Of a DNA stretch of 64,000 bases, positions 6,678-23,453 are shown piece after piece. A program made the translations under genes and the position numbers. The first letter of the stretch is position 1. Each line of letters starts with the position of its first letter. The notes below the pieces were generated by a model. It worked only from the letters and a program-made list of their open reading frames with translations. It was not told the origin of the DNA and ran no database searches. This stretch comes from Minisyncoccia bacterium (lineage in GTDB: Bacteria; Patescibacteriota; Minisyncoccia; Phycocordibacterales; UBA6065). The DNA lies in NCBI GenBank assembly GCA_044233485.1, contig JBIIJY010000004.1:16022-80021 (forward strand), read 5' to 3'.

Positions 6678-6697
6678 TTTTGTATAACCATACAACC

Positions 6698-7234: not shown

Positions 7235-7248
7235 ATACACTCGAAAAA

Positions 7249-7270: not shown

Positions 7271-7312
7271 ATTTTAGTGTCAGAATACGACAGCAAACGA
7301 GGCCTCAATTCG

Positions 7313-7341
7313 TTGACTTTCATATAAAACCTTGCTAGAGT
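7313..7341 (+). promoter_or_regulatory. Putative internal promoter for the rpsN sub-operon (TTGACT-N14-TGc-TAGAGT)
   Basis: Read directly. It has the same TGC-TAGRRT extended -10 architecture as the site at 3693. Downstream (7350-7378) an aaagcttt-acag-aaagcttttttt hairpin lies in the leader. Confidence 0.45.
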
Positions 7342-7401
7342 GAGTGCCTAAAGCTTTACAGAAAGCTTTTTTATTTCAACACAAACTTCTTAATTCCACG
7401 T

Positions 7402-7587
7402 ATGGCAAAAACTTCGGTAGTAGCCCGCTCACAAAAAAAACCTAAATTTTCATCTCGTATCGTACGACGATGTTTTCGATGCGGACGAAAAAATGGATAT
7501 ATGCGAGACTTCGGACTCTGCCGTATTTGCTTCCGTGAAGCTGCGAATGACGGTCTCATTCCAGGTATTAAAAAGTCTTCGTGGTAA
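7402..7587 (+). CDS. rpsN: 30S ribosomal protein S14, zinc-binding (type Z, 61 aa)
   Basis: CFRCGRK...CRIC is the 4-Cys zinc ribbon typical of short-form S14. Confidence 0.9.
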
Positions 7588-7598
7588 TTAACCGGTCA

Positions 7599-7991
7599 AT
7601 GAAACCAGCGACAGATACTATCTCTGATCTCATCATCAGATTAAAAAACGCCAACAATGCGGGTAAGTCTGCCGTAACAATTCCAGCTTCTAGTTTGAAG
7701 CACGCTATTTGTAACGTGCTCAAAGCAGAAGGATTTGTTGGGGCAGTAAAAAAGCATGATACCTCACGAACACTCGAGGTCGAGCTTCTCTATACAGGAA
7801 AGCATCCTCGAATTCATGAAGTGTTTCGAATTTCGAAGCCTTCAAAGCGAGTGTATAGTAAATCAAGTAATCAGCGTCCGTACAAGAATGGATATGGTCG
7901 AGTCATTCTTTCAACTCCACAGGGCATTATGACAGGTGAAGCTGCCAAGAAAGCCAACGTCGGTGGAGAGCTTCTCTTTAAGATTTGGTAA
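7599..7991 (+). CDS. rpsH: 30S ribosomal protein S8
   Basis: TDTISDLIIRLKNAN...GEAAKKANVGGELL matches S8. Confidence 0.92.
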   Translation: MKPATDTISDLIIRLKNANNAGKSAVTIPASSLKHAICNVLKAEGFVGAVKKHDTSRTLEVELLYTGKHPRIHEVFRISKPSKRVYSKSSNQRPYKNGYGRVILSTPQGIMTGEAAKKANVGGELLFKIW

Positions 7992-8001
7992 TACAACTTC
8001 T

Positions 8002-8535
8002 ATGTCACGAATTGCAAAAAAACCAATAGTACTTCCAGCCAACACCGAGATTACTCTCGCGCAGGGCGTGCTCACTGTAAAGGGTCCACTTGGAACTCTC
8101 TCACGACCGATCGTTGCTGGAGTTGATGTGACTGTAACTGACGGTAAGGCTCAGGTGGCGGCATCTGCAAAGAGTGGTGCTATCTCAGCCCATGTTGGTA
8201 CAACTGTTGCTCACCTCAAGAACATGATCGCTGGAGTAAATAAAGCCTTTGAGAAGAGACTTATTATCGAAGGAATCGGCTTCAAAGCTGAAATAAAAGG
8301 TAATGAAGTAGTTCTTGCTCTCGGTTTTTCTCATCCGATCAAGCTCCCAATTCCAGCTGGTATCACCGCTGGTAATGACAAGACGGGTCTCCTTATCTCA
8401 GGAATGAACAAGGATGCTGTCGGTCAGTTCGCTTCATATATCCGCTCACTCAAAAAGCCAGAACCATATAAGGGTAAGGGTGTTCGATATGAAGGTGAAG
8501 TTATCAGACGTAAGCAGGGTAAGAAAGCTGCATAA
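8002..8535 (+). CDS. rplF: 50S ribosomal protein L6
   Basis: MSRIAKKPIVLPANTEITL...VKGPLG matches the L6 N-terminus. The ORF track starts further upstream, in frame with the S8 tail. Confidence 0.92.
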   Translation: MSRIAKKPIVLPANTEITLAQGVLTVKGPLGTLSRPIVAGVDVTVTDGKAQVAASAKSGAISAHVGTTVAHLKNMIAGVNKAFEKRLIIEGIGFKAEIKGNEVVLALGFSHPIKLPIPAGITAGNDKTGLLISGMNKDAVGQFASYIRSLKKPEPYKGKGVRYEGEVIRRKQGKKAA

Positions 8536-8547
8536 TAGTACACATAT

Positions 8548-8889
8548 ATGAACGTATCAAAACGACAACAAGTAGTACGACGACATGCACGAATCCGAGC
8601 GAAGGTAAAAGGAACGCTCGAGCGTCCACGTCTTGCAGTATTTCGATCAAATCGATACCTCTACGCCCAGATCATCAACGATGCAACATCAAAGACTTTG
8701 TGTGCATCTTCTTCACTCGAACTCGAACTTCCTCTCAAGGATGCAGCAGTAAAAGTCGGAGCTGATATTGCTCAAAAAGCAAAGAAAGCTGGTATTACGA
8801 AAGTAGTATTCGACCGAGGAGGATTTCTCTTTACTGGAAAGATAAAAGCTCTTGCTGAGTCAGCTCGAAGTGCTGGTCTAGAATTTTAA
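8548..8889 (+). CDS. rplR: 50S ribosomal protein L18
   Basis: PRLAVFRSNRYLYAQIIND is the L18 signature. Confidence 0.92.
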   Translation: MNVSKRQQVVRRHARIRAKVKGTLERPRLAVFRSNRYLYAQIINDATSKTLCASSSLELELPLKDAAVKVGADIAQKAKKAGITKVVFDRGGFLFTGKIKALAESARSAGLEF

Positions 8890-8900
8890 TTAGTAACACC

Positions 8901-9533
8901 ATGGAAGATACAACAAAAACAACAGTAGCTACTCCAGTCGAAGCAACAGCACCGGTATCGGCAGACAAAACTGCTGCTCCAGCTGCTCAGGGCTTTGCTG
9001 GTCGTGGTCCACGAAAAGATTTTCGACGAGGTGGTCCAGGTGGTGGACGACGTCCGATGAATCGTGAGGCACGAATCAAGCCTGAGTACGATCAGAAGAT
9101 CCTCGAGATTCGACGCGTAACTCGTGTGACATCTGGTGGTCGAAAGCTTTCGTTCTCAGTCACTCTCGTAGCGGGAAACCGAAAGGGAATGGTGGGAATT
9201 GGTCTTGGAAAAGCTGTCGATACGACTCTCGCTATCGACAAGGCATATCGAAATGCTAAGAAGAACGCTGTTCGAGTTCAGATGACAAAGAATAACTCAA
9301 TTCCTCACGATGTGAGTGCAAAGTATTCTTCATCACGAGTAATCATTATGCCGGCTCCAGGACGTGGTCTCATCGCCGGAAGTTCTGTGCGAACTGTACT
9401 TGAGCTCGCGGGTGTAAAAGATGTTGGTGCAAAGCTCCTTTCTCCGACAAAGAATAAGCTCAATAACGCTCGAGTAGCGATCAAGGCTCTCTCACGTCTC
9501 TCACCAGTTCGAGAATTTAAGAAAACAGCATAA
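8901..9533 (+). CDS. rpsE: 30S ribosomal protein S5 (with ~50-aa Ala/Pro/Gly-rich N-terminal extension)
   Basis: RVTRVTSGGRKLSFSVTLVAGNRKG...MPAPGRGLIAG is the S5 core. Confidence 0.92.
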   Translation: MEDTTKTTVATPVEATAPVSADKTAAPAAQGFAGRGPRKDFRRGGPGGGRRPMNREARIKPEYDQKILEIRRVTRVTSGGRKLSFSVTLVAGNRKGMVGIGLGKAVDTTLAIDKAYRNAKKNAVRVQMTKNNSIPHDVSAKYSSSRVIIMPAPGRGLIAGSSVRTVLELAGVKDVGAKLLSPTKNKLNNARVAIKALSRLSPVREFKKTA

Positions 9534-9543
9534 TACTACTTTC

Positions 9544-9981
9544 ATGCAAATCAACGAACTAAAACCAGTAACACCTCGAAAGAAGACAGTCCTTGTCGGA
9601 CGAGGAGGAAAGCGTGGAAAGACAAGTGGACGTGGTACGAAAGGCCAGAAGGCTCGTGCTGGACACAAGATCCGCCCAGAGATTCGAGACCAGATTCGAC
9701 GAGTTCCAAAGCTCCGAGGTCGAGGTATCAACAGTAACTTGCCAGTATTCGACAAGCCAGTAGCAGTTACTCTCACAACACTCAGTGCAGTGTTCAAGGA
9801 CGGTGATGTGGTATCTCCACAGTCACTCGTTGCGCAGAGTGTTATCACTAACAAGGGTGATAAATTCCCAAAGGTGAAAATCATCGGTGGGGAACTCGAT
9901 AAGAAGCTTGTTTTTGAAGGAGTTGCTTTCACTGCTGGTGCACGGGAAACCGTCACTAAGGTAGGAGGAACTATCAAATAA
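9544..9981 (+). CDS. rplO: 50S ribosomal protein L15
   Basis: GRGGKRGKTSGRGTKGQKARAG matches the L15 N-terminal region. It directly follows S5, with no L30 gene between them. Confidence 0.92.
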   Translation: MQINELKPVTPRKKTVLVGRGGKRGKTSGRGTKGQKARAGHKIRPEIRDQIRRVPKLRGRGINSNLPVFDKPVAVTLTTLSAVFKDGDVVSPQSLVAQSVITNKGDKFPKVKIIGGELDKKLVFEGVAFTAGARETVTKVGGTIK

Positions 9982-10004
9982 GCCCCGTTTCTACATAAAA
10001 ACAA

Positions 10005-10033
10005 TAAAAACACCCCTGGAGGGGTGTTTTTAT
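10005..10033 (+). terminator. Rho-independent terminator after rplO
   Basis: An acacccc-tgga-ggggtgt hairpin followed by TTTTTATT. Confidence 0.65.
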
Positions 10034-10117
10034 TGTGCAATGGCTTACGTGATGAAGGAACTCATTTGGCATTGAAAATACTTGTTTTTTGAAGTATTCT
10101 GTATAGCACATACTTTT

Positions 10118-11404
10118 ATGACAAATTTATCCAAAAAACTTCAGATGGTCTTCACGAGTCCGGCAATTCTCAAGAAGATTTTGTTTATTCTTCTCGGTCT
10201 TGTGGCTTTCCGAGCCCTCGCCACAATTCCAATCCCTGGTGTGAATGCGCTCGCCCTTGAGTCGTTCTTGGCTCAGAGTGGAAACGAATTCTTCGGACTC
10301 TTGAATATTTTCTCGGGTGGTGGTCTCTCAAATCTCTCGATTGTAATGCTTGGTGTCGGTCCCTACATCACTGCTTCAATTATCATGCAGCTATTGACGA
10401 TGATTTTCCCAAAGTTGAAAGCGACATATCAGGAAGAAGGTGAGGCCGGTCGACTTCGATTTTCACAGTGGACTCGATTCATCTCAGTGCCGCTTGCTAT
10501 CATTCAGGCCTATGGCTTTTTGGCACTTTTGCGAACACAGGGTGGAGGGCAGATTTTGGGTGATCTCACCATGTATCAGACATTGCTCAACGTGCTCATT
10601 ATTACTGCTGGTTCAGTTGCTCTCATGTGGATCGGTGAGGTTATCTCAGAGTTTGGTCTCGGTAACGGAACGTCATTCATTATCTTTGCTGGTATCGTCT
10701 CAGCTCTTCCGACGACAGTAAATACATTGCTCTTGAACTATGATCCGAGTCAGATTCCACTCTTCTTGATCTTCGGTGCGGTAGCTCTCATTGCTACGTT
10801 TGGGGTGGTCATGGTCAATGAAGCAGAGCGACCGATTCAGGTTACGTATTCAAAACAGATGCGTGGTGGGAAAGTGTTTGGTGGCGTCTCTTCATACCTT
10901 CCACTCCGTCTTAATCAGGCAGGTGTGATTCCAATCATTTTCGCCCTCTCGCTCTTGCTCTTCCCGCAACTATTCCTTTCACTTGTCGCAACCACGACTC
11001 ATCCAGGACTTCTAGCGGTTTCAAACTTCATTAAGACTGCTCTTAACCCGCAAGGATATATTTACGCCGCTCTCTACTTCGTTCTCGTATTTCTCTTTAC
11101 CTATTTCTACACAGCGGTAACGTTTGATCCGAAAGCAATCGCGGAGAATCTTCAGAAAAATGGAGCATTCATCCCAGGAGTGCGACCAGGAACTTCGACA
11201 GAAGAGTATCTCGGCGGAGTAGTGACACGAATCACTCTCGTTGGCGCGCTCTTCCTTGGTCTCATCGCTGTCCTACCACTCTTGATCCGAGATTCACAGT
11301 CGTTTAGTGTGGTGATCGGTGGTACAAGTCTCTTGATCGTCGTGTCAGTAGTGCTTGATATCTTGAAAAAGCTCGACGCACAGCTCTCGATGATGGAATA
11401 CTAG
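10118..11404 (+). CDS. secY: Preprotein translocase subunit SecY
   Basis: It has the ten-TM topology and SecY motifs (GVNALALESFL, GISPYITASIIMQLL-like, RPGTSTEEYL). The ATG at 10118 is preferred over the TTG at 10082. Confidence 0.93.
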   Translation: MTNLSKKLQMVFTSPAILKKILFILLGLVAFRALATIPIPGVNALALESFLAQSGNEFFGLLNIFSGGGLSNLSIVMLGVGPYITASIIMQLLTMIFPKLKATYQEEGEAGRLRFSQWTRFISVPLAIIQAYGFLALLRTQGGGQILGDLTMYQTLLNVLIITAGSVALMWIGEVISEFGLGNGTSFIIFAGIVSALPTTVNTLLLNYDPSQIPLFLIFGAVALIATFGVVMVNEAERPIQVTYSKQMRGGKVFGGVSSYLPLRLNQAGVIPIIFALSLLLFPQLFLSLVATTTHPGLLAVSNFIKTALNPQGYIYAALYFVLVFLFTYFYTAVTFDPKAIAENLQKNGAFIPGVRPGTSTEEYLGGVVTRITLVGALFLGLIAVLPLLIRDSQSFSVVIGGTSLLIVVSVVLDILKKLDAQLSMMEY

Positions 11405-11430
11405 TCTCTCGTATTGGTTTGTTTTAAGTA

Positions 11431-11463
11431 GAAAGCGCGGCGCCCAAAGGGCGCCGCGCTTTC
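11431..11463 (+). terminator. GC-rich palindromic hairpin/terminator after secY (copy 1 of a repeated element)
   Basis: gaaagcgcggcgccc-aaa-gggcgccgcgctttc. A near-identical copy lies at 30508-30536. Confidence 0.6.
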
Positions 11464-11501
11464 TATACGGAGCAACTCAAACACGCTATACTATTTTTTA
11501 A

Positions 11502-12083
11502 ATGGAAAAGAAAGCATATATATTCATCGGACGATCTGGTTGCGGTAAGGGTACACAGGTTGATTTACTCGAGAAGCAGAGTAAAGAGTCAGGGGTGTCG
11601 AGTTTGAGACTAGAAACAGGAAAGTACTTTCGAGACTTCATTACTCGCTCAAACATCACTCACACGCTCTCAAAGACCATCTATGAAGCTGGTGGACTTC
11701 AGCCAGAGTTTCTGACTGTGCATATTTGGAGTACTGAGTTTGTCGAGAACTATCACGGCCAAGACGTATTGTTCATCGACGGAACACCACGAAAGTTGCA
11801 TGAGGCACAGGTGCTAAACACCGCTCTTGATTTTTATGGATTCACCAAACGAATCGTAGTGCATTTGGACGTCTCGCGGGAATGGTCAAAAAAGCGATTG
11901 CTTGCTCGAGGACGCCGAGATGACAATGCTGACGATATTGAACGACGCCTGAACTGGTTTGAGACAGACGTACAACCAGCTATTGAGTATTACAAAAATA
12001 ATCCAACCTACACCTATCTCCAGATCAACGGTGAGCGTTCAATCGAGGAGATTCATGCCGACCTTGTCGCTAATCTCTCGTAA
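11502..12083 (+). CDS. adk: Adenylate kinase (short form, no zinc-finger LID domain)
   Basis: It has the P-loop GRSGCGKGTQ, the DGTPR motif and RGRRDDNADDIERRL. It is in the conserved secY-adk-map position. A TATACT -10 lies about 12 nt upstream of the ATG, so the transcript may be near-leaderless. Confidence 0.8.
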   Translation: MEKKAYIFIGRSGCGKGTQVDLLEKQSKESGVSSLRLETGKYFRDFITRSNITHTLSKTIYEAGGLQPEFLTVHIWSTEFVENYHGQDVLFIDGTPRKLHEAQVLNTALDFYGFTKRIVVHLDVSREWSKKRLLARGRRDDNADDIERRLNWFETDVQPAIEYYKNNPTYTYLQINGERSIEEIHADLVANLS

Positions 12084-12086
12084 GTC

Positions 12087-12863
12087 ATGTCGATTACCTA
12101 TAAAACACCAGAAGAATTAGAAATCCTACAGGAGGGTGGTAAGCGGCATGCGCGAATCCTACAAGCACTCACGAAGCTTGTCACCCCAGGTGTCTCGACA
12201 CTACATCTCGACGAAGTCGCTCGTGGTCTTATTCTTGAAGCAGAGGGTGAATCTGCTTTTTTGGGATATAAGCCCTATGGTGCGGATCGTCCATTTCCTG
12301 CAGTGATCTGTGTCTCGATCAACGATGCAATTGTTCACGGGATTCCGAATGAAAATCCTGTCATCATTCAAAATGGTGACATTGTCTCAATCGACCTAGG
12401 GTTTGTGTACTGTGGATTAATTACCGATAGCGCTCGGACAGTGATTGCTGGTACAGGGGACAAGGAAGCCTATCGAATGCTTGAGGTGGCTCGACAAGCC
12501 CTCTCCGCGGGGCTTGAAGCAGTGTCGTGTGGTGGTCGTGTCGGTGATATCGGGCAGGCGATCGAGTCTGTAGTCGGTAAAGCACGTTTTGGTACGGTAC
12601 GTGAACTCGCTGGGCACGGAGTGGGCTACTCGGTGCACGAGGCTCCGTATGTTCCCAATTATGGCAAAAAGGGTACTGGCGAGAAGATTAAAGAAGGAAT
12701 GGTGTTTGCAATTGAGCCGATGATTACCGAAGGCAGTGAAGAGATCGTTCTCGATGCAGACGGCTATACCTATCGCACGGCGGATGGTGGGCGCGCGGTT
12801 CATGAAGAAGACACGGTCGCGATTTCGCATGACGGGGAAGTGCTTATCTTGACCCGCCTCTAA
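12087..12863 (+). CDS. map: Methionine aminopeptidase, type I
   Basis: The metal-binding residues are present in DAIVHGIP...SIDLG...HGVGYSVHE..FAIEPM. Confidence 0.92.
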   Translation: MSITYKTPEELEILQEGGKRHARILQALTKLVTPGVSTLHLDEVARGLILEAEGESAFLGYKPYGADRPFPAVICVSINDAIVHGIPNENPVIIQNGDIVSIDLGFVYCGLITDSARTVIAGTGDKEAYRMLEVARQALSAGLEAVSCGGRVGDIGQAIESVVGKARFGTVRELAGHGVGYSVHEAPYVPNYGKKGTGEKIKEGMVFAIEPMITEGSEEIVLDADGYTYRTADGGRAVHEEDTVAISHDGEVLILTRL

Positions 12864-12917
12864 ACTTATTCCCAGACGGGGTTTTGCGTAGCTTCGACGG
12901 GATATACTGAGAAGTAT

Positions 12918-15275
12918 ATGAGTGAACAACCACCTAGAAGCTATAGTGACGTCTACTTAGAAGTAAAAGAGCTTGTAAAGGGCTTTCCATTTGAGACTCC
13001 CAACGGTCTGTTAGCGTCTCCCGATGGAATCCCTGAGCGAGCTCAAGAAATTTTGAAAAAGATCGAAGAATTGGATCCATCGAATTCAATTAGTGAGCTA
13101 AATGCTTTGAGGGGGTGTTTGATAAAGGCTCATACTAACGGCAAGTTGGACTCTTTGAGAGATCTTGATACTCTTTTACCGCCACTTCCCGAACCTGGAA
13201 CTTCATCTGAAGTGGTAAGTGAAGTTGCTCAGGCTACCACAGGGTCAGAACAGCCAACGCCCGCTTCAGGTTCTACGTCAGAAGTTCCAGCGACTGAATC
13301 CGTTTCACCAGTACCTACTCCTGAAGCCCCTCCGGTGGTAGAGCCTCAGAATCCCACATCAGCTCCCGTCTCTCCTCCTGCGCCAGAGGCCTCAGCGCCA
13401 ACTTCTCCTGAAAAGAGTCCGGAGATAGATGAACTTAAAAGACAGATCAGTGAGCTTAAAGACGAGAACGGCAAAATTAAAGACGCGTTTAATAGGTTGA
13501 TCAAAGCGAATATTGATAATCGAGATCAAATCCTCGAGGAGTTGAGGAAAGTGCGAGAAGATGTGAAGGGAAGTGGTAGTAAAACTCCTACCACTCCAGC
13601 TCAGTCAAATGTAGCTCCAGAGGCTCGAAAGACTCCAGCAGAGTCAGCTCCTGCGGCGGAAACTAAAGAAGCGCCTAAGGCTGCACCAGAAAATGCTTCG
13701 CCAAAAGCAGAGTCAGTTAAAGAAAAACCAGATCCAAAAAAGATTTTTACGGAAAAGAATAAAGTATTAGACAATCATCAATTTGATGTCATCGTCGATA
13801 GTCTTGCTTCGGCAACTGAAAAAGGTAATGGCGAGGTTATCGCTGGACTTCGCGCTGAACTCGACGCAATTGCCGATGAGCCTGAATTCCGAGAGTGGAG
13901 ACATGCGTATGGGCACGAGTACAACCTGTCTCAACCCCCTACAGTTGAGGAGGCGAACGTCTTTGCTCGGCAGTACAAAACATATAAAGCACATCGCGAG
14001 ATTTTCTTTAAAAGTGAGGGTATCAAGAGCGAACTCGTAACTTTTGTGAACATGTCGCTTATGGATGCGTACAAGTCATATATCCCGCTCACTAAGGAGG
14101 ACGCCCAAGTGCTCGAGGGAAAGCTTGATGATTTGGTGAATCCACAGGAGCTCGATTTGAGTGGTGAGGATGGTCTGAATGAGTTCCGGCAGAAAATTGA
14201 GCAGGTGAATCGCATCGACGCGAGTATGCAAAATATCCGTATGAAGCTCATTCCTGAATTCGACAAAGCACATCGTCGTTTATTTGCTGAAGCGCGATCT
14301 CTCGGACTTGAAAAAGAGCTCAATGCCCAAGCTGGTTTTGAAGGTGTTCGCCCAGGCAGTGCAGAACGTATGATCGAGGTCCTCGATACTATGCTTGCCG
14401 ACGCGGATAGTCTTGAAGCTGAGCTCAGTGAGCATAAAACTAAAGGCATGAAAGGCACACGACAAGAAGCAATCGCTGGGTTCTTTGCAAAATACGATGG
14501 TCTCATGAATGCCTTTGGTTTTTCTGGGCCAGACTTTTTCCAAGCGATGAAATTTTACTTTCCATGGCGCAATATCAGTGTTAATGCGTTTAAAGAAAAA
14601 ATACAGGAGATTCGAAGCGTTGTTGACTCAAAAAAGAAGACCTATCGTGAAGCTGCGGACAGTTTAAAGAATGAACGGCAGCAAATAATCGAAACGCTCG
14701 GTGCCCAGGAGTTTATCGCTCGAGTGGCTCAGGAGAAGGTGATCAAAAAACTCACCAAGGCTCGTAATGCAATGTTTAGCGGCCTAGAACGTGGCGGTCT
14801 AAAACTCGAAGCCGATTCTGCACTAGCTCAAGCGGAGCTTGCACGGACATTTGAGGAGCTCGGTGATGATCCAAGTGATGTGAGTGGCTTGGGTGAGATT
14901 CTTAAGAATGCACCGGTAAGAGATGTTGACGGCAATATGACCACAGCTCGTGAAGCACGTATCAATCAGGGTACTAAAGCAATTGGCCAAATGATCGGTA
15001 CGTATCTTAGTGAAATGAGTACTACTCGAAACAAAGAATTTCAAGGCTTCATGTCACTTATTGATGGGCAGTTGAAGCGAGATAAATTCGGTGAAGAAAA
15101 AGGTGATAAGCAAAAGACAATCATCAGTGCTCTTCGGGATATCCAGTTGAAACTAGCTGCCGATAAAGCAGATGATCGTGTAGCGCGGCGCAAGCGTGAG
15201 TATGTGAAGCGAGCAATCGACACACTTGAGGCACGTATCGATCCGGCTAAAGTTAAGGGTGCTCGAACTAAATAA
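12918..15275 (+). CDS. Hypothetical 785-aa protein. It has two Pro/Glu/Thr/Ala-rich low-complexity linkers (about aa 85-175 and 215-270) flanking a predicted coiled coil, then a ~500-aa alpha-helical domain.
   Basis: It is a long ORF with coding-like codon usage. No family was recognised. Neither a signal peptide nor a TM segment is apparent. It is co-directional and tightly spaced with the next two genes. Confidence 0.6.
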   Translation: MSEQPPRSYSDVYLEVKELVKGFPFETPNGLLASPDGIPERAQEILKKIEELDPSNSISELNALRGCLIKAHTNGKLDSLRDLDTLLPPLPEPGTSSEVVSEVAQATTGSEQPTPASGSTSEVPATESVSPVPTPEAPPVVEPQNPTSAPVSPPAPEASAPTSPEKSPEIDELKRQISELKDENGKIKDAFNRLIKANIDNRDQILEELRKVREDVKGSGSKTPTTPAQSNVAPEARKTPAESAPAAETKEAPKAAPENASPKAESVKEKPDPKKIFTEKNKVLDNHQFDVIVDSLASATEKGNGEVIAGLRAELDAIADEPEFREWRHAYGHEYNLSQPPTVEEANVFARQYKTYKAHREIFFKSEGIKSELVTFVNMSLMDAYKSYIPLTKEDAQVLEGKLDDLVNPQELDLSGEDGLNEFRQKIEQVNRIDASMQNIRMKLIPEFDKAHRRLFAEARSLGLEKELNAQAGFEGVRPGSAERMIEVLDTMLADADSLEAELSEHKTKGMKGTRQEAIAGFFAKYDGLMNAFGFSGPDFFQAMKFYFPWRNISVNAFKEKIQEIRSVVDSKKKTYREAADSLKNERQQIIETLGAQEFIARVAQEKVIKKLTKARNAMFSGLERGGLKLEADSALAQAELARTFEELGDDPSDVSGLGEILKNAPVRDVDGNMTTAREARINQGTKAIGQMIGTYLSEMSTTRNKEFQGFMSLIDGQLKRDKFGEEKGDKQKTIISALRDIQLKLAADKADDRVARRKREYVKRAIDTLEARIDPAKVKGARTK

Positions 15276-15284
15276 CATACATAT

Positions 15285-15584
15285 ATGAACAAAGACTATA
15301 CAGATGTACTTGCGCTCGTCGACGATGTGCTCACGCACGGGAAGCCAAAAGAGATTGAGCATATCATTGAGGCATTCCTGGATCAGCCCGGACTCTATAA
15401 ACCATCAACGATAACCCCTCTCGATATTGTTGAGGTCAAATTGAAAATTTCTGAGCTTCTCCTGACCCTTGCAACTGATCGGCTGAACGCGGTCGCCGAT
15501 GCTCTCACTGCTCTTCGAGAAGAGGAAGCGGATCTAGATACTCGGGCAAAGATAGAAGAACTTAAAAAGCTCTTGAAGAAATAA
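15285..15584 (+). CDS. Hypothetical small acidic helical protein (99 aa)
   Basis: The ORF starts 10 nt after the upstream stop, and the ATPase gene starts 32 nt later. No family was recognised. Confidence 0.5.
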   Translation: MNKDYTDVLALVDDVLTHGKPKEIEHIIEAFLDQPGLYKPSTITPLDIVEVKLKISELLLTLATDRLNAVADALTALREEEADLDTRAKIEELKKLLKK

Positions 15585-15616
15585 GTCGACAGTTTCGCGT
15601 GATACACTACTAGTAT

Positions 15617-18346
15617 ATGAACGAAGGAGGACTTTCGCTTGAAAAAAAGTTCAAGAACCCTGAAGAGGAAATTGCTTTTTTGCGTGAACAAGTGGCCCTT
15701 CGCGAGCGGGAACTTAAAGTCTCGACCGAGACTGCTCGGAGTGAAGTCGTACGTGATGTAGTGAATTCATACGCGGCTGTTCCGAAACCTCAAGTAATTC
15801 ACGAGGAGTACACTTCAACTCCGGAACATAAAGAGTCGATCCGGCTCAAGCTCTCTCCAGAGGCTCACGATAGTGAGCTCGGGCAATATATCTTTCTCTT
15901 GCAAGAGAAGGGGGTCAAGGTGGCGATCGATGCAGTGGCTCGAGTCAAAGACATACATCTTTATGATGATTTCCATCGCTTTCTAGTTGAGTATTTGAAA
16001 GAAGGACTTAACTTAAGTGGTCTCAAAGAAAAGACGCCACTGTGGCGAGAATTGCACATGACTCTCTATGAAGTAGTCCTTCCGGAGCCTGAGACAGGGA
16101 AAGAGCGCTCGCTTGGAGAAGTACTTTCTTCGATGGAGCAATTTTATGCGGGTATGAACTCTGTCGGAGACGCAGAGGATAATAATTACTATACTTTTGA
16201 GCTTGCGGTCTCAAATCATAGTGACGAGTTCATCTTTTACTTTGGTATACCCGATGAGAAGACAGTTTTGTTTGAAAAGCAGATTCTGGCCATCTTCCCA
16301 AACGCTAAAGTCGTTACGAAGTCAGATGATTACAATATTTTTAATGAGACAGGTGTGGCGACTACTGCGACGATCGCCCTCGCGCACAATCATGCGTTGC
16401 CAATCAAGTCATACGAACAATTTAACTATGATCCGCTCAATGTTCTAACAAACGCCTTTTCAAAAATAAAACGGAGTGGTGAAGGGGCGGCGATACAATT
16501 TCTCATTCGTCCAGCTCGTCGTGACTACATTAAGACCTATAAAGAATATATTACAAAGCTCGAGGGCGGGGCTTCACTACGAGAGCTAGGGGGGAGTGAA
16601 TCGCTCGGCACCGTCTTTACCTCTGTATTGAAAGAGTTTTGGACTGGTTCGAAATCAAAAGAAACAAAGACAGACGAAGCAAAGAAAAAAGTAGATACAC
16701 AGGCGATCGACTCGATTCGTAAAAAGATGGAGTCGCCACTCCTTGAGGTAAATGCCCGCATCGTAGTATCAAGTGAAAGTGTCGAGCTCTCAAACGCAAT
16801 TCTCGATGATATTGAGAGTTCGTTTAATCAGTTTGAGCTCACCCACGGGAACAAGGTTGTCTTTAAGCGTCCTCAGAAAAGTCGACTCGAATCTTCTCTT
16901 GAGGATTTCGTCTATCGTCGGTTTGTGCCAGATGAGCGCCTCGTCCTTTCGCAAAAAGAACTTGCCACCCTCATTCATGTCCCAGCCACCGGAAAGCTCG
17001 CTTCTTCACAGGTAAAGCTGGTTCGTTCGAGTGGTGCCCCAGCGCCCCTGGACTTACCACAAGAGGGGACTTTGCTTGGTACAAATACCTATCAAGGTAT
17101 TGAGACAAATGTTTACCTAACCAAAGAAGATCGAGTTCGACATTTCTACTGTATTGGTCAGACAGGAACAGGTAAAACAACCCTGCTCAAGAATATGATC
17201 GTTCAGGATATTCGAGCTGGGCATGGAGTCTGTTATATCGACCCACATGGTACGGATATTCAAGATATTCTCGCGAGTATTCCACCCGAGCGAGCTGATG
17301 ATGTGATCTATTTTGACCCGGCTTACACCGAGCGCCCGATGGCGCTTAATATGCTTGAGTACGATGTGCGCTACCCAGAGCAGAAAACATTCGTCGTCAA
17401 TGAACTCCTGGGGATTTTCAATAAACTCTTCGACATGAAGACGGCAGGTGGGCCGATGTTTGAGCAGTATTTTCGAAATGCCGTCATGCTCGTCATTGAG
17501 CACCCAGAGTCGGGTTCGACGCTACTCGATGTCTCTCGAGTGTTGGCGAGTAAAGAATTCCGTAAACTCAAGCTGGATAATTGTAAAAATCCAATTGTGA
17601 CTCAGTTTTGGAGAGAAGTAGCTGAAAAAGCTGGTGGAGAAGCGAGTCTGCAGAATATTGTTCCCTACATCACTTCAAAATTTGATAACTTCCTGTCGAA
17701 CGAAATCATGCGTCCGATCATTGCTCAGGAAAAATCAGCCTTTAATTTCCGTGAGGTAATGGATGGTAAAAAAATCCTTCTCGTAAATCTTTCAAAAGGT
17801 CGACTAGGGGATCTAAACGCCAATCTCATTGGCCTTATCGTTGTTGGTAAGATTTTGATGTCCGCTCTCTCTCGTGTCGACGCCTACGGAACTGAACTCC
17901 ATGATTTTTATCTGTATATTGATGAGTTTCAAAATGTGACCACGGACTCAATCGCGGCAATTTTGTCTGAGGCGCGTAAGTATCGACTCTCGCTCAATAT
18001 CGCTCACCAGTACATTGCTCAACTTCAGGACACGATACGCGATGCTGTTTTTGGAAACGTCGGTTCGCTTGCTGCCTTTCGTATTGGTGCCGATGATGCA
18101 GAATATCTTGCAAAGCAATTCGAGCCAGTCTTTTCAGCAAAAGATTTGATCAATATTGATAATCGTAATGCGTACATCAAGATTCTCGCTCACGGTAAAC
18201 CGATCAAGCCTTTTAATATCGAGACCAAGGCGCCATCGAAGGGGCAGCAAGAGAATATCGCTACCCTAAAAGAGCTTTCGTACCTCAAGTATGGAGCAGA
18301 CCGAGCACAACTAGAAGCTCAAATACGCGCCCGCTATGAAAAATAA
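15617..18346 (+). CDS. FtsK/HerA/VirB4/VirD4-superfamily P-loop ATPase (909 aa). An N-terminal ~450-aa domain of unknown type precedes a C-terminal AAA_10/TraG-like ATPase domain.
   Basis: It has Walker A GQTGTGKTT, then an IDPHG motif about 20 aa later, then Walker B YLYIDEFQNV, then RKYRLSLNIAHQYIAQL. This motif set is shared by HerA, VirB4/TrbE and TrwB/VirD4-type coupling ATPases. No TM helix is obvious. Confidence 0.7.
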   Translation: MNEGGLSLEKKFKNPEEEIAFLREQVALRERELKVSTETARSEVVRDVVNSYAAVPKPQVIHEEYTSTPEHKESIRLKLSPEAHDSELGQYIFLLQEKGVKVAIDAVARVKDIHLYDDFHRFLVEYLKEGLNLSGLKEKTPLWRELHMTLYEVVLPEPETGKERSLGEVLSSMEQFYAGMNSVGDAEDNNYYTFELAVSNHSDEFIFYFGIPDEKTVLFEKQILAIFPNAKVVTKSDDYNIFNETGVATTATIALAHNHALPIKSYEQFNYDPLNVLTNAFSKIKRSGEGAAIQFLIRPARRDYIKTYKEYITKLEGGASLRELGGSESLGTVFTSVLKEFWTGSKSKETKTDEAKKKVDTQAIDSIRKKMESPLLEVNARIVVSSESVELSNAILDDIESSFNQFELTHGNKVVFKRPQKSRLESSLEDFVYRRFVPDERLVLSQKELATLIHVPATGKLASSQVKLVRSSGAPAPLDLPQEGTLLGTNTYQGIETNVYLTKEDRVRHFYCIGQTGTGKTTLLKNMIVQDIRAGHGVCYIDPHGTDIQDILASIPPERADDVIYFDPAYTERPMALNMLEYDVRYPEQKTFVVNELLGIFNKLFDMKTAGGPMFEQYFRNAVMLVIEHPESGSTLLDVSRVLASKEFRKLKLDNCKNPIVTQFWREVAEKAGGEASLQNIVPYITSKFDNFLSNEIMRPIIAQEKSAFNFREVMDGKKILLVNLSKGRLGDLNANLIGLIVVGKILMSALSRVDAYGTELHDFYLYIDEFQNVTTDSIAAILSEARKYRLSLNIAHQYIAQLQDTIRDAVFGNVGSLAAFRIGADDAEYLAKQFEPVFSAKDLINIDNRNAYIKILAHGKPIKPFNIETKAPSKGQQENIATLKELSYLKYGADRAQLEAQIRARYEK

Positions 18347-18929
18347 ACTCACTGAACAAACACTTGTAGTCGTAAAACCTGACGGCGTCGAACGAAACCT
18401 CGTTGGCGAAGTCATCGCTCGTTTCGAGCGTGTGGGGCTCAAGATTGTTGGAATGCGTATGTTTGTCCCTACTCAAGAGCTCGTCACGAAGCATTATCTT
18501 ACCGATCCAGAATGGAGACGAAAAGCGGGAGAAAAGGCAATCGCCAATTTCAAAGCCAAGGGACTAACACCACCAGAATCAGATCCAGAGCGCTATGGCG
18601 AAAATGTTCTCCAGAGTCTCGTGACCTATCTCACTCGTGGCCCAGTGGTCGCACTTGTGCTCGAGGGCTTTCATGCGGTCGCGATTGTGAGAAAACTCGT
18701 TGGTTCTACCGAACCGCTCTCTTCTGATGTGGGTACAATCCGTGGGGACTATATGATTGACTCTTATGAACTGTCGACACTTGAAGATCGAAGCATTCAA
18801 AATATTCTTCATGCCTCAGGCAATGTCCAGGAGGCGCAAGGGGAAATTCCGCTGTGGTTTGGAAACGATGCTCTGATCGAGTATCACAATATTCACGACT
18901 CTCATCACGAGAAACGACGAGTTAAATAA
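18336..18929 (+). CDS. ndk: Nucleoside diphosphate kinase (with internal insertion)
   Basis: VVVKPDGVERNLVGEVIARFE...GPVVALVLEG...GTIRGDY...HASGN are NDK motifs. Confidence 0.85.
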   Translation: MKNKLTEQTLVVVKPDGVERNLVGEVIARFERVGLKIVGMRMFVPTQELVTKHYLTDPEWRRKAGEKAIANFKAKGLTPPESDPERYGENVLQSLVTYLTRGPVVALVLEGFHAVAIVRKLVGSTEPLSSDVGTIRGDYMIDSYELSTLEDRSIQNILHASGNVQEAQGEIPLWFGNDALIEYHNIHDSHHEKRRVK

Positions 18930-20760
18930 GTGAACGAGGCTCGACCTCAATCTTGATATACGGGGGAAGTGAGCGAATCCGTTTAGCCAAGTCGCTCTCT
19001 GGCCACGTAGAGGCTTGTATCATAGCTGACAGACTGACTCCGTCTGGATGAGGAACAAATGCTGGATATACCAGTACCTCAGTCGGAGCAATTATTTTTT
19101 GTAATCGTTCCATGTTGGCCTGCACGAATTCTTTGTTACCGGTGATGGTGCACTTTATGAGTGTTGTATAAGGTGGTTGGCTGAATCGTTTACGTGACTC
19201 GAGTTCTTTAGTGACCCACTCTTGATGTGAGTTTGAAATAAAATGAGAGAAGACATCGTATCCTTTCATGCGTGTACTGACTGTCATGGTACGGACGGCA
19301 CAGTTTTGAAGTTTTGTAATCAAGTTGTGAATACGCTCGCTGGTGTGTAGGTCGGGTAGGGAGAGAAGAATATCGTTTTCGAGCCAGTATATATGATCGA
19401 CCGTGCGTGGGAGCACATGAAGCGCAAGCTCAGTGCCACAGAGGATTGAAAATTTCGTTCCCCACTGGGCAAGTGTCTCGGTGAGCGCACTTTCACGGGG
19501 CGTGTGTGTACTGCTAATCATTCCGTAAGGGAGTTTGTATTCTGTGAGAAGTTCGGCAAAGCGCTCAAGCCCTGCTCCGAGTGGGTCAAGGTTCCAGCTC
19601 TCACAGTGTGTACATCGGCGCTCGGCTGTTTCGCGAGTGCCACAGTGTCGGCAAATATAGATACGCCCCTCTGCCTTTTGATGAAGAACGAGAGGGAATC
19701 GGCAGGTTGAACATCGGACGAGCTCGTGACAGTCACGACAGGCGGTGAGTGGGTAGAGCCCTTTCTGCGCTACAAAGATGAAAATACGCTCTCCACGTGC
19801 ACTCTGTTCCTGGAGTTGTTTTTTAAATGTCTCGGAGTTGAGGTAGTCACCGTTCGTGTTATACGCATCAATGCAAAGTCGTCGTGCATCGTCTCTTTGG
19901 CGAAAGGTCAGAGGCTGCGCCTCGACTTCACTGTGCTCGAGTCGTCGTGCATGTCTCTCGATGCTTAAAAAATCTGCACCAAAGTAGAGAGGTGAATTGA
20001 AAGTCTGCGCCACGAACTGCATCAGTCGACGAACATCAAAGTAGGGTGATTTGAGATGGATATAGTTGCGATTACTTTCATCTTCGACGATGAAGCATCG
20101 TCCATGATGGAGCCCGACCAAGAGTCGACTAGGCGTGAGGACGGTCACAGTACCAGAAAGTTTTGTCTGTGCTTCTTTGTATTTTTCTAATTGCTTTTCA
20201 GTTGTTGCGGGGGTAATGCAGAATACTTTCTCTTCAATGCCTTTACGAATATCTTCAAAAATCTGTTCCGCATAGTGACTATTCGGGCAGATAACTAGAG
20301 TGTGAATATGTTTTGAGAGCATCTCCCGGGTGAGAGTGCGGTAAAAGCTAATTCGGTCTTCGTATGGTTTTTGTATATCAAGAACTTCGTAGTGCAGGCC
20401 GTTCGACTCTGATTCACTCGAAGGCTCTTCATCGAGAATATGCTCGACGCCAAGTAGTCGGAGGATCTGTCCTGATGAGCCGAGGTAGTAGTCTGCTGTT
20501 TGCGCCACCGCACTCAGTGCTCGAGAGGCGAGGGTACCAAGCGGAGCTGTTGAGACAACTTTCCGGACGGCAAAATCCTGGGTCTTGAGTTCTTGTTTGA
20601 GGGATCGGGCATCGACCACCTCGAGCACGACAGCCTTGATTGTCTTTTTGCGTAGCGGCACCTCAACGATATCCCCACAGGCAAAAAGAGTGCCTGAAAA
20701 ATAGCTCAGTTGCGCCAGTTCTCGGCTTTTTGAGAGTGGAAGTACGTGCACGAGGTACAT
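18922..20760 (-). CDS. priA: Primosomal protein N' (PriA)-like protein with a degenerate helicase core
   Basis: A PriA-type N-terminal 3'-DNA-binding region (VEVPLRKK..KAVVLEV; YYLGSSGQILRLL) is present. The C-terminal Cys-rich zinc-binding insert (CRDCHELVRCSTC..CRHCG..CTHC) is retained. The Walker A position reads QKPYEDRI instead of GxTGSGKT. The DEEH box is VEDESNRNY. Confidence 0.7.
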   Translation of the reverse strand: MYLVHVLPLSKSRELAQLSYFSGTLFACGDIVEVPLRKKTIKAVVLEVVDARSLKQELKTQDFAVRKVVSTAPLGTLASRALSAVAQTADYYLGSSGQILRLLGVEHILDEEPSSESESNGLHYEVLDIQKPYEDRISFYRTLTREMLSKHIHTLVICPNSHYAEQIFEDIRKGIEEKVFCITPATTEKQLEKYKEAQTKLSGTVTVLTPSRLLVGLHHGRCFIVEDESNRNYIHLKSPYFDVRRLMQFVAQTFNSPLYFGADFLSIERHARRLEHSEVEAQPLTFRQRDDARRLCIDAYNTNGDYLNSETFKKQLQEQSARGERIFIFVAQKGLYPLTACRDCHELVRCSTCRFPLVLHQKAEGRIYICRHCGTRETAERRCTHCESWNLDPLGAGLERFAELLTEYKLPYGMISSTHTPRESALTETLAQWGTKFSILCGTELALHVLPRTVDHIYWLENDILLSLPDLHTSERIHNLITKLQNCAVRTMTVSTRMKGYDVFSHFISNSHQEWVTKELESRKRFSQPPYTTLIKCTITGNKEFVQANMERLQKIIAPTEVLVYPAFVPHPDGVSLSAMIQASTWPESDLAKRIRSLPPYIKIEVEPRSLI

Positions 20761-20871
20761 ACTCCTATTGTATGACAGTCTCTATCGGCTTGTCAGTTGC
20801 GCGAGTCCGTATTTATCGGTCAGTATTCACAGAAGCAATTTAAGCGATTCCTACACTGGTATTATGGGGGT

Positions 20872-22077
20872 ATGAAAGAACGTAGCATGGAAGATCTTCC
20901 TGCTTTCGTCAAAGGTGTGGTCACAACGGCACAGCTTGTTGATTCTCTTATTGTTGATGCATTCGGGAAACATTCTTCGGATATTCACATTGACCCGCAT
21001 AAAGAAGGGTTGCTTGTTCGCTATCGCATCGATGGGTTACTTGAGAAAGCTTTCCTACTCACGCGTACTCGTCAGGACGAAGTGATTTCCCGTATCAAAC
21101 TTCTCTCAGGAGTGCGTATCGACGAGCATTTTCGTCCGCAAGATGGCCGGTTTACTTTTTCTTCTGAAGGAGTGATGCTTGATATTCGGGCAACGTTTGG
21201 AAAATCACTTAATGGAGAGTACATAGTACTTAGATTACTTGGCAAAAAACTGCATGGAGATTCTCTTTGTGTGCTCGGCTTTTCTCAAAAACAAATTGAA
21301 CTCATCAATCGACAGCTCGCGCGTCTCTCGGGCCTCATCGTAGTGGCTGGTCCTACAGGATCTGGAAAAACTACGACACTCTACACACTCCTTACGCAAT
21401 TAGTCGATTCGACTCGCTCAATGATCTCCATCGAAGATCCGATAGAGTATGAGTTGGCTGGTGTCAGGCAAATACAAGTACAGAATTCACTTGGTCTAGA
21501 TTTCGCTTCAAATCTTCGTTCAGTATTACGCCAAGATCCAGATGTGATCATGGTGGGGGAAATACGGGATGAGGAGACTGCGCGTATTGCAGTGCATGCC
21601 GGTCTCACTGGGCACTTGGTACTGACAACGCTTCACGCTGAATCCGCCGGGGCAATCATTCCTCGGCTTTTTGATATGGGTGTCCCTCCGTATATACTCG
21701 CCTCCACACTGCGTCTAGCTCTCTCACAGAGGCTTGTACGAAAGCATTGCTCAGGGTGCCGCTACGAGGTGGGTGTGTCGAGTGAATATCACGAGCTTAT
21801 GGAAAAGCTAGGGCTTGCAAAACGCGACTTCTATCACAAAACCAAGGGGTGTGATCTGTGTCGTGGAACGGGTATTGCTGGACGAATGGTTATCTCTGAG
21901 CTGATACCAATAACCGAGGTCGAGCAACATATGATTACGGAGCGTCGCTCACAGAGGGATTTTACTAATCAGATTGTGCGAACGACGGGAACTTCTTTTA
22001 TCAATGATGGAATTGAAAAGGTTCATGCTGGAGATGTTGATTTTGATGAGTGCATTCGAGTGATTTATGAAACATAA
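20872..22077 (+). CDS. pilB: Type IV pilus / type II secretion assembly ATPase (PilB/GspE family, short form)
   Basis: It has Walker A GPTGSGKTTT, the Asp box, Walker B VIMVGEIRD, a His box, and a C-terminal tetracysteine motif (CSGCRYE..CDLCRGTG). The start at 20872 is chosen over the TTG at 20797. Confidence 0.85.
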   Translation: MKERSMEDLPAFVKGVVTTAQLVDSLIVDAFGKHSSDIHIDPHKEGLLVRYRIDGLLEKAFLLTRTRQDEVISRIKLLSGVRIDEHFRPQDGRFTFSSEGVMLDIRATFGKSLNGEYIVLRLLGKKLHGDSLCVLGFSQKQIELINRQLARLSGLIVVAGPTGSGKTTTLYTLLTQLVDSTRSMISIEDPIEYELAGVRQIQVQNSLGLDFASNLRSVLRQDPDVIMVGEIRDEETARIAVHAGLTGHLVLTTLHAESAGAIIPRLFDMGVPPYILASTLRLALSQRLVRKHCSGCRYEVGVSSEYHELMEKLGLAKRDFYHKTKGCDLCRGTGIAGRMVISELIPITEVEQHMITERRSQRDFTNQIVRTTGTSFINDGIEKVHAGDVDFDECIRVIYET

Positions 22078-23098
22078 AATAAGTACACAACAGAGTACTG
22101 TCTTCCTGGAAAACTTTGTTCAAGCCTACACCCACGGATATACAATTCCACAAGTCCTTCGTCTGGTGGCTAAAGGATCCCGTGCTCAAGCTGATTTGGC
22201 TGAGGCGGTGAGTCGTCAGGTGGAGTCGGGCGGTTCTCTTACTCGGGCGCTTGCAAATGTCGGTGTGGTTCATGCTCGTGAACTACCACTCGTAACTCTC
22301 GGTGAGCAATCGGGCGAGTATATGCCAGTGCTGACCTATATTATTGAATCGCGAAAGAAGCGTAGGAGTTTTCTTGGAGAGCTTGGTGTGCTCTTGCTGT
22401 ATCCAAGTATTGTAGGTGTTCTTATGAGTGGGGTATGTATTTTTATAATGACGGCAATTATACCGTCTCTCGTGCGCGTGTTTTCTGGTATGAATGTCGT
22501 CTTGCCACTACACACTCGACTTCTGATTTGGTTTTCTGAACATGTATGGATAGTTTTCTCGGTGGGTGTGCTAAGTGTCCTCGTGGTCACTGGCACCTTG
22601 TATATTTACTTCAGGTCGCACTCTTCTTGCAGGATGATTGAGTATATATTTCGCATACCAATTATCGGTGGGCTGGTCCAGAATATGTATGCTCAAGTGA
22701 TTATTCGAGCGTGTATGACAGCTCTCGGACTACCGATCTCGCTTACCTCGAGCCTTGAACGGCTCAAAGTCGGAGTAGATTCCTATTCAGCTATACAGTT
22801 CAGTTCTATTCAGTCTTCGCTTGAGCGTGGGACGAGACTCTCGGAGTCTCTGCAGTCACTCTCTTGTATCAAACCGGCGTATGCTCTACAGATATGTTTT
22901 GGAGAAGAGACTGGTCGACTGCGTTCAGTTCTTGATATTGTGCAAAAGACAATCGAACAAGAGAATGCTCGATACATCAAGCTCTTTACTAAACTCTGCG
23001 AGCCGCTACTGATGATCGCACTGGGTGCCGGAGTTATTTTTATTGCTTCAGCGGTACTCACTCCGCTCTATGAAATCACTCGACATGTCAAAAGATAA
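22067..23098 (+). CDS. pilC: Type IV pilus inner-membrane platform protein (PilC/GspF family)
   Basis: It shows T2SS-F domain features and three TM segments. It overlaps the pilB stop by 11 nt, suggesting translational coupling. Confidence 0.75.
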   Translation: MKHKISTQQSTVFLENFVQAYTHGYTIPQVLRLVAKGSRAQADLAEAVSRQVESGGSLTRALANVGVVHARELPLVTLGEQSGEYMPVLTYIIESRKKRRSFLGELGVLLLYPSIVGVLMSGVCIFIMTAIIPSLVRVFSGMNVVLPLHTRLLIWFSEHVWIVFSVGVLSVLVVTGTLYIYFRSHSSCRMIEYIFRIPIIGGLVQNMYAQVIIRACMTALGLPISLTSSLERLKVGVDSYSAIQFSSIQSSLERGTRLSESLQSLSCIKPAYALQICFGEETGRLRSVLDIVQKTIEQENARYIKLFTKLCEPLLMIALGAGVIFIASAVLTPLYEITRHVKR

Positions 23099-23453
23099 AC
23101 TTGCCGGATTTACCTTGGTCGAGGTGGTACTGACCGTAGTGCTCGTGAGTGGAGTAATGATGATGGTTGCTCTGTATGCGCGCAACTTGTCCAGACTCCT
23201 TTTTACAAATGAGATAGAGAGCTTCATTACGCTCCTTGAGAGTAAGCGATTAGAAGCACAGGTATATCCTGTGCAACTCGTGTGTTCTAATCGAACGGTC
23301 ATGTCTGAGGTGCAGTTAGTTTTTACTTTTGCACACCATGACTGTGTCGGCGGGACGACCTTTCCGAAAAATTCAACTTCAACATTTAGACTGAGCGGTC
23401 AGACCGAGCAGGTAATACTTATTTCTCCCCATGGGATACTTTCGATTGAATAG
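23085..23453 (+). CDS. Prepilin-type N-terminal cleavage/methylation domain protein (pseudopilin 1)
   Basis: The N-terminus MSKDKLAGFTLVEVVLTVVLV has the G|FTLVE class III signal motif. Confidence 0.75.
   Translation: MSKDKLAGFTLVEVVLTVVLVSGVMMMVALYARNLSRLLFTNEIESFITLLESKRLEAQVYPVQLVCSNRTVMSEVQLVFTFAHHDCVGGTTFPKNSTSTFRLSGQTEQVILISPHGILSIE

Follow-up and report, generated by a model that had tools for sequence, protein, structure and literature searches.

We analysed a 64-kb stretch of the genome of a Minisyncoccia bacterium (the window, contig JBIIJY010000004.1, in whose coordinates positions are given) and concentrated on three open reading frames (ORFs) located between map and ndk, here called the trio. 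The third of them encodes an ATPase of 909 amino acids (aa), which is a vertically inherited core gene of the Paceibacteria, a class of ultra-small Patescibacteria, fixed between map and ndk. Judged from its sequence and from structural models, this ATPase is a soluble protein combining a VirB4-like overall layout with a motor sequence similar to that of the type IV coupling proteins (T4CPs) of type IV secretion systems (T4SSs). Together with the two ORFs preceding it, it forms a trio that is a real, clade-restricted elaboration of the conserved single gene. The reading which we favour, and to which we give about an even chance, is a “domesticated” T4CP-like motor working with an adaptor and a client. 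The region is arranged as follows:

12087..12863, + strand: map, methionine aminopeptidase (Peptidase_M24), with which the canonical tail of the spc operon ends; upstream synteny anchor
12918..15275, + strand: large accessory protein, 785 aa (ORF map)
15285..15584, + strand: small acidic helical accessory protein, 99 aa (ORF map and family profile)
15617..18346, + strand: ATPase, 909 aa (ORF map)
15617..16021, + strand: ATPase residues 1-135, predicted helical N-terminal extension (AlphaFold2, AF2, models)
16022..16996, + strand: ATPase residues ~136-460, DUF8128 core, alpha/beta, with a predicted fold like that of the VirB4 N-terminal domain
17057..18346, + strand: ATPase residues ~481-909, P-loop translocase domain of the T4CP/VirB4/HerA clade
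18336..18929, + strand: ndk, nucleoside diphosphate kinase (PF00334), the downstream synteny anchor

The three ORFs are tightly spaced: 54 nucleotides (nt) separate map from the 785-aa ORF, 9 nt lie between the 785-aa and 99-aa ORFs and 32 nt between the latter and the ATPase gene, the 3' end of which overlaps ndk by 11 nt. An earlier note on this DNA had described these ORFs, their spacing and four ATPase motifs, and all of them are real, the sole correction being that it gave the second gap as 10 nt. The motifs are Walker A (GQTGTGKTT, 17156-17182, residues 514-522), the DPHG motif (IDPHG, 17237-17251, residues 541-545), Walker B (YIDEFQNV, 17915-17938, residues 767-774), and the RK...Q motif (RKYRLSLNIAHQYIAQL, 17975-18025, residues 787-803). 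Walker A, DPHG and most of the Walker B and RK...Q residues show no variation in 26 homologues and little or none across 51. In a profile of the 26 homologues, they align with the corresponding motifs of TrwB (Walker A/DPxG, Walker B/RK...Q), which is the sole sequence match of this profile in the PDB; the same order of Walker A, DPxG, Walker B DE, and RK...Q is found in the T4CPs VirD4, TrwB, TraD, DotL, and Cag-beta. The Pfam models TraG-D_C and TrwB_AAD_bind match the C-terminal domain (residues ~480-870) just above their gathering scores, while T4SS-DNA_transf and DUF87 remain just below theirs. These matches, together with the aligned motifs, uphold the assignment of the protein to the VirD4/VirB4/HerA clade of P-loop ATPases.

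The N-terminal region had been regarded as unrecognised in the earlier note. It is Pfam DUF8128 (PF26449), as indicated by the precomputed annotation of an identical protein (P0001) and of all 120 listed homologues. AF2 models it as a soluble alpha/beta domain (residues 1-480: mean predicted local distance difference test score, pLDDT, 74.8, with the core mostly at 85-95; full-length protein: mean pLDDT 84.7, predicted template modelling score 0.68). The top 13 PDB matches found by Foldseek are all TrwK chains, and in its modelled fold, DUF8128 is similar to the N-terminal domain of VirB4. A search for DUF8128 returned 955 representatives; every full-length one that was aligned (about 800-1,120 aa) carries the ATPase motifs, and the shorter matches look like fragments. 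The helical extension (residues 1-135) is absent from the distant variants of ~800 aa, whose matches start from query residue ~140, and from the plasmid homologues, which match from ~190.

No membrane helix was predicted in any of the three trio proteins. In the ATPase, the maximal 19-residue Kyte-Doolittle mean is 1.78, which falls inside the ATPase core, and there is no membrane helix in residues 1-480, in agreement with the earlier note. The T4CPs differ in this respect, since the window protein has a soluble VirB4-like region of ~460 aa in place of their N-terminal membrane helices; with VirB4, TrwK, and TrbE, it shares the soluble two-domain layout and a VirB4-type N-terminal domain. The AF2 model also contains an all-helical insertion (~588-716) between Walker A and Walker B, which may correspond to the all-alpha domain of the T4CPs; the TrwB_AAD_bind match spans the P-loop region 500-546 alone. 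The C-terminal domain of VirB4 likewise has a helical bundle between Walker A and Walker B. The fold thus places the motor in the HerA/VirB4/VirD4 clade and does not discriminate within it.

The distribution of the ATPase was addressed in 80 related loci retrieved from a scan that covered a single genome for each GTDB species, the counts below referring to 81 sampled loci. The gene is present in at least 597 GTDB species, and more than 1,497 homologues were found; the 120 listed are 55-62% identical to the ATPase and nearly all full length, and the named ones all belong to Patescibacteria/Parcubacteria. Map is located upstream on the same strand in 37 of the 54 loci whose upstream sequence extends to 8 kb or more, and Ndk downstream in 50 of 81; neighbour clustering identified Ndk as the commonest neighbour (51 loci). 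The map-ATPase gap is below 200 nt in 19 of 44 loci and the ATPase-ndk gap in 23 of 50; map, ATPase, and ndk are directly adjacent in roughly 40% of the loci having map or ndk in range. The majority of the sampled loci show the order S5-L15-SecY-Adk-Map-ATPase-Ndk, frequently without intervening genes. The conserved block, L18-S5-L15-SecY-Adk-Map-ATPase-Ndk-DUF2238-betaCASP RNase followed by L20/L35/IF3 on the opposite strand, was seen in locus L003 and about 40 others, and its counterpart in the window occupies 8901-18929. Mean identity to the window proteins is 62% for S5, 57% for SecY, 54% for the ATPase, 50% for Map and L15, 46% for Ndk, and 39% for Adk, i.e., the ATPase is about as conserved across the clade as SecY.

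In the neighbour-joining tree of the ATPase, the map/ndk context occurs in all deep clades, and the loci devoid of it are mostly nested within them. This is why we consider the position after map ancestral for the lineage and not an insertion in this genome. The earlier note had spoken of a striking module replacing the infA-rpoA segment and had named ubiquity at this position in relatives as an argument against its own proposal; such ubiquity is what we found for the ATPase, and there is no compositional anomaly (GC content 0.457 in the trio region and 0.458 in the window). The missing continuation of the operon is real: tblastn with E. coli queries detected no InfA, RpmJ, RpsM, RpsK, RpsD, RpoA, or RplQ in the 64-kb window, and none of the related loci has an infA-to-rplQ product within 10 kb of the ATPase. 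A conserved break of the ribosomal super-operon after map is thereby recorded in this lineage. In the search of the window for infA to rplQ, the ORFs at 34-37 kb proved to be rplJ/rplL and unrelated genes. Being fixed at the end of the ribosomal-protein/secY operon, the ATPase gene is probably expressed along with housekeeping genes coupled to growth; a scan for promoters and terminators over 11.4-21 kb gave counts not clearly different from those in shuffled sequence.

Outside Patescibacteria, the closest homologues with an interpretable context belong to plasmids. tblastn revealed 455 plasmid records matching the ATPase, including those of Bacillus (205), Streptomyces (104), Staphylococcus, Clostridium, haloarchaea, Sulfolobus, and Thermococcus, and the best-ranked ones cover residues ~190-886, i.e., the core of the N-domain and the ATPase. 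Two plasmid contexts were examined. On the 27.5-kb plasmid NZ_CP154917 of B. subtilis, an 885-aa homologue without a membrane segment (WP_345805471; 24% identity over 714 aa, BLASTP E 1e-38) precedes a Replic_Relax protein, proteins of conjugal transfer, and a separately encoded VirB4 of the AAA_10 type. On the Embleya plasmid NZ_CP108778, the order is a PrgI-family protein, a VirB4-like ATPase, the homologue (WP_331738717), Replic_Relax, and an NlpC/P60 hydrolase. The plasmid homologue loci have the following coordinates:

L086, 3558-6215: two-domain homologue, DUF8128-like N-domain and ATPase
L087, 8581-11019: two-domain homologue, DUF8128-like N-domain and ATPase

Since the homologue abuts Replic_Relax and coexists with a separate VirB4, the two-domain family holds the coupling-protein position in monoderm-type conjugation systems. 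The window ATPase shares with these “DUF87 / T4SS-DNA_transf” proteins the DUF8128-like core and the ATPase, and with the Bacillus protein also the lack of a membrane segment. It differs from them in being an orphan, while they sit beside Replic_Relax and a full T4SS set; in addition, its helical extension is covered by none of the plasmid and phage proteins, and their identity to it is only 20-28%. Homologues of this type are widespread beside Replic_Relax genes on Bacillus, Streptomyces, Clostridium, and archaeal plasmids and occur also in large Bacillus phages. The phage homologues (records JN638751.1 and GU568037.1) include gp156 of Bacillus phage G, and the family phrog_5156, which has no assigned function, matches at E 2.3e-79.

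For the distant DUF8128 variants, the only taxon names returned were Paceibacterota and Minisyncoccia. One of these variants, the ~800-aa ATPase P0245 of L085, is not located after map. Its co-directional neighbours within 4604-14582 of that locus encode a POTRA protein resembling FtsQ, a 597-aa protein with 8 membrane helices, a 162-aa protein that is acidic, four small proteins with multiple membrane helices, and a 532-aa poly-proline secreted protein; this set may be a membrane apparatus associated with the distant ATPase variant. Two distinct copies of the ATPase reside on different contigs (L028 and L046) of assembly CALRBL01, a Nomurabacteria metagenome-assembled genome, the second copy being either a paralogue or a bin contamination.

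The two genes upstream of the ATPase behave differently from it. The 99-aa protein (isoelectric point, pI, 4.9) belongs to a recognisable family: a profile built from the 95-98-aa ORFs located directly beside the ATPase in eight other loci, with the window protein excluded, matches its residues 1-98 at E 1.2e-7, as the only non-training match among 360 ORFs. When 6,541 ORFs were re-searched, the family (95-99 aa) was found in 12 of 81 distinct loci, in all 12 beside the ATPase, and in 11 of these the small gene directly follows a gene for a large protein (gap -3 to 118 nt). The large partners of these 11 loci consist of 362-1645 aa, have no hydrophobic helix, and are acidic in 10 of the 11 (pI 4.7-5.8). 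The pair is located mostly upstream of the ATPase and downstream of it in L003 and L005, the latter having no map or ndk nearby; therefore, the association with the ATPase holds in different contexts. Most of the sampled loci that have the pair fall into the clade closest to the window organism. The synteny check suggested in the earlier note thus gave a divided answer: the position of the ATPase is conserved, and infA was never seen within 10 kb of the ATPase, whereas the “three-gene module” does not travel as a unit, the ATPase being its conserved element. A PDB profile search with the small family yielded weak matches to designed helical bundles and a protein resembling tetratricopeptide repeats.

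The 785-aa protein (pI 5.3) lacks a signal peptide and a membrane helix. It comprises P/S/T/A-rich stretches (~101-165 and 221-275), a charged helical, coiled-coil-like stretch between them (166-220), and a helical C-terminal domain, with a net charge of +6 over the last 35 residues. Full-length and C-terminal-domain searches among 5.8 billion proteins revealed one relative (P0122), and phmmer of the 785-aa and 99-aa proteins against ORFs of neighbouring loci gave nothing; Pfam, NCBIfam, PADLOC, and PHROGs had no meaningful match to either partner. The large proteins of other loci are weakly related to each other, and the 785-aa protein shares with them a short C-terminal block (“K-D/E-K-F/L-G-x-K-G”), which is suggestive of homology and not a proof of it.

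A comparison with L088, the closest relative locus having the same gene order, demonstrated identities of 98.6% for SecY, 92% for the ATPase, 91% for the small protein, 88% for Map, and 61% for the large protein. The dN/dS values for the ATPase, the small, and the large proteins are 0.04, 0.06, and 0.12, respectively; therefore, the three ORFs are real genes, on each of which purifying selection acts, and the large protein evolves about five times faster. In several other loci, the map-ATPase interval contains giant ORFs of 1,217-2,117 aa (L013, 4297-9234; L035, with the 2117-aa ORF; L024, 5010-8663), and this interval looks like a hotspot of large proteins that change rapidly.

We suggest that the VirB4-like N-domain, the plasmid kinship, and the fixation in the operon argue for a core cellular role of the ATPase over mobility or defence. 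From the domain identity, synteny, conservation, and pair adjacency, we infer that this role is that of a T4CP-like motor. Motors of this kind work as hexamers, the N-domains of VirB4 proteins contact the inner-membrane subunits of T4SSs, and coupling proteins recruit their substrates, often via small acidic helical partners, such as IcmS/IcmW for DotL, CagZ for Cag-beta, and TraM for TraD. By analogy, the ATPase would be a soluble, presumably hexameric member of the T4SS family, built of a VirB4-like N-domain and a VirD4/TrwB-type P-loop motor, which Paceibacteria may have domesticated. Related two-domain proteins have the role of the coupling protein on conjugative plasmids of Gram-positive bacteria and archaea. 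That a conjugative element of monoderms was the ancient source of the gene, which then became fixed, is compatible with this. Being devoid of a membrane anchor, the ATPase would dock through its N-domain onto a membrane platform, the likely candidate being a T4SS-like inner-membrane complex of Patescibacteria encoded elsewhere, and ATP hydrolysis would drive the recruitment and feeding of a macromolecular substrate. To this motor, the window organism and about 15% of the sampled relatives may have added an accessory pair, in which the acidic helical protein of ~96-99 aa is most plausibly an adaptor or regulator, while the large acidic protein, which evolves fast and has no signal, would be a client or substrate.

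This explanation agrees with a published survey, in which 5,713 VirD4-like T4CP homologues were counted in 2,918 of 3,035 Patescibacteria genomes, about two “orphan” proteins per genome, with only 148 near virB4; their exaptation was raised as a possibility and their role left open (PMC12102498). These numbers fit the picture of a domesticated motor, while they also keep alive a T4SS-independent role. DUF8128 and the name “TraM recognition domain-containing protein” are already catalogued, and orphan T4CP homologues are already published; what appears to be new is the VirB4-like N-domain, the kinship with plasmid coupling proteins, the operon position with SecY-level conservation, and the adaptor-like partner family. 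In the literature, we found no paper mentioning “DUF8128” and no described T4CP class with a VirB4-like N-domain.

Several observations weigh against the domesticated coupling motor. The partial NCBIfam matches to T4CPs are far below the family cut-offs (SXT_TraD 57 vs 366 bits; CD1115 VirD4-like 35 vs 250). Unlike the T4CPs, which have relaxase and mating-pore genes nearby, the ATPase is a chromosomal core gene of the ribosomal/secY operon: no T4SS structural gene, relaxase, or Replic_Relax was found within 10 kb in the fetched Patescibacteria loci or in the 64-kb window, and thus no linkage to a T4SS was seen there. The remark in the earlier note that the trio is not a canonical T4SS locus was correct. 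Homologues of T4CPs occur in more genomes than VirB4 (2,918 vs 2,417), therefore some of them may work without a T4SS, and in Southlakia, the T4CP homologue, be it of the DUF8128 type or not, is non-essential for epibiotic growth (PMC12102498). With regard to the accessory pair, 85% of the sampled loci do not have it next to the ATPase, and the similarity of the other loci's large partners to the 785-aa protein is not significant (hhalign E 0.0084, probability 4.8%; in hmmsearch of the large-partner profiles, it has E 0.35 and ranks second among non-family ORFs).

A bolder version of the same explanation is that the motor, a coupling protein retaining a VirB4-like domain for docking, is essential, growth-coupled, and co-expressed with the genes of the Sec translocon and the ribosome. 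With the ~96-aa protein as its dedicated adaptor, it would deliver giant, signal-less, lineage-specific proteins that evolve rapidly into or onto host cells, or import host nucleic acid. We consider this version unlikely; if true, the epibiotic lifestyle would depend on this motor as one of its central machines, and the ATPase would be a living intermediate that links VirB4 to VirD4. Much of bacterial diversity belongs to the host-dependent Patescibacteria, and the machines mediating this dependence are poorly known. The adaptor-like and hypervariable partner genes are concrete candidates for interaction and substrate tests.

Among the alternatives to the domesticated coupling motor, the most serious one, which we still find rather doubtful, is a housekeeping nucleic-acid motor independent of T4SS, involved in DNA uptake with type IV pili/ComEC or acting as an FtsK-like chromosome pump. 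The fold is common to the DNA translocases HerA, FtsK, and TrwB, the fixed neighbours adk and ndk are genes of nucleotide metabolism, and the greater spread of T4CP homologues compared to VirB4 would also suit it. However, adk, like map, belongs to the normal operon tail, no DNA-binding domain was identified in the ATPase, and the FtsK_SpoIIIE Pfam model scores 12 bits against a cut-off of 24, which fails to support FtsK/SpoIIIE membership. In the window, 2.4 kb separate the ATPase from a type IV pilus cluster located downstream, but this adjacency is not conserved, since PilB is near the ATPase in just one other locus (L040). VirB4-like ATPases have a precedent in DNA import: CedB and CedD of Sulfolobales are VirB4-related, carry pieces resembling the VirB4 N-terminal domain, and act outside classical conjugation (PMC11868833). 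These proteins differ from the window ATPase in being archaeal, ultraviolet-inducible, and not located in a ribosomal operon, and the CedD match in NCBIfam is weak and at the level of the P-loop alone (18 bits vs cut-off 600). The context of the closest homologues, which is that of plasmid coupling proteins, also speaks against this alternative.

Less probable still is an assembly or energising ATPase of the VirB4 type, i.e., a paralogue serving as a second VirB4 for a T4SS or pilus. The lack of an N-terminal membrane anchor, by which the protein departs from classical T4CPs, would be in line with it. Sequence profiles, however, favour the T4CPs, and VirB4 models barely register: there is no AAA_10 or CagE_TrbE_VirB match to the ATPase, and TIGR00929 scores 13 bits, its cut-off being 643. 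The plasmid homologue occurs together with a bona fide AAA_10 VirB4 and adjoins the relaxase-like gene, which is the position of a T4CP. Patescibacteria possess their own monophyletic VirB4, a separate canonical lineage encoded near dnaA and dnaN and not here (PMC12102498); neither a canonical VirB4 nor membrane components of the VirB3, VirB6, and VirB8 types were detected in the window or in the related Patescibacteria loci.

We regard as very improbable the anti-phage defence module proposed in the earlier note, in which a HerA-like ATPase would act with a large partner and a small adaptor. The fast evolution of the large partner would suit defence, and the ATPase has a partial PADLOC match to mad8 (41.5 bits, residues 508-863) and P-loop-only matches to HerA. 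Nevertheless, neither partner matches any PADLOC model meaningfully (scores are weak or zero), Pfam, PADLOC, and NCBIfam scans revealed no nuclease, Sir2, or other effector domain in the trio, and the partners are absent from 85% of loci. The HerA defence ATPases (MADS mad8, HerA-Sir2/Nezha, HerA-DUF, and DptH) differ from the window protein, which has no effector partner or system match and shows the distribution and synteny of a core gene. SecY-level conservation and housekeeping synteny over hundreds of species are the opposite of patchy defence islands, and, combined with the absence of a system-level match of the trio in PADLOC, they largely refute the defence-island reading. The least probable explanation, a remnant of a conjugative element or prophage recently integrated after map, to which the plasmid and phage homologues could point, is refuted by synteny, conservation, and composition: no integrase, relaxase, or mobile-element gene was recognised among the scanned ORFs of the window, the position is the same over all deep clades, and the identity to plasmid and phage proteins is far below the 52-61% observed among Patescibacteria.

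Elsewhere in the window are housekeeping genes, the pilus cluster already mentioned, and a pair of 23S and 5S rRNA genes. The pilus cluster (20797-25972) includes PilB-like T2SSE, PilC-like T2SSF, several unannotated genes, and an N_methyl pilin. Between ndk and this cluster, on the - strand (18922-20760), a 612-aa PriA-like protein is encoded, whose sole match is the 3'-DNA-binding domain of PriA (23 bits); it has a Cys-rich zinc-finger stretch and no helicase or DEAD-box Pfam match at E <= 1e-3, and may be a degenerate or highly divergent PriA. The 23S rRNA (40122-43098) and 5S rRNA (43201-43308) genes are not accompanied by a 16S rRNA gene detectable anywhere in the 64 kb, and the rRNA genes appear to be unlinked.

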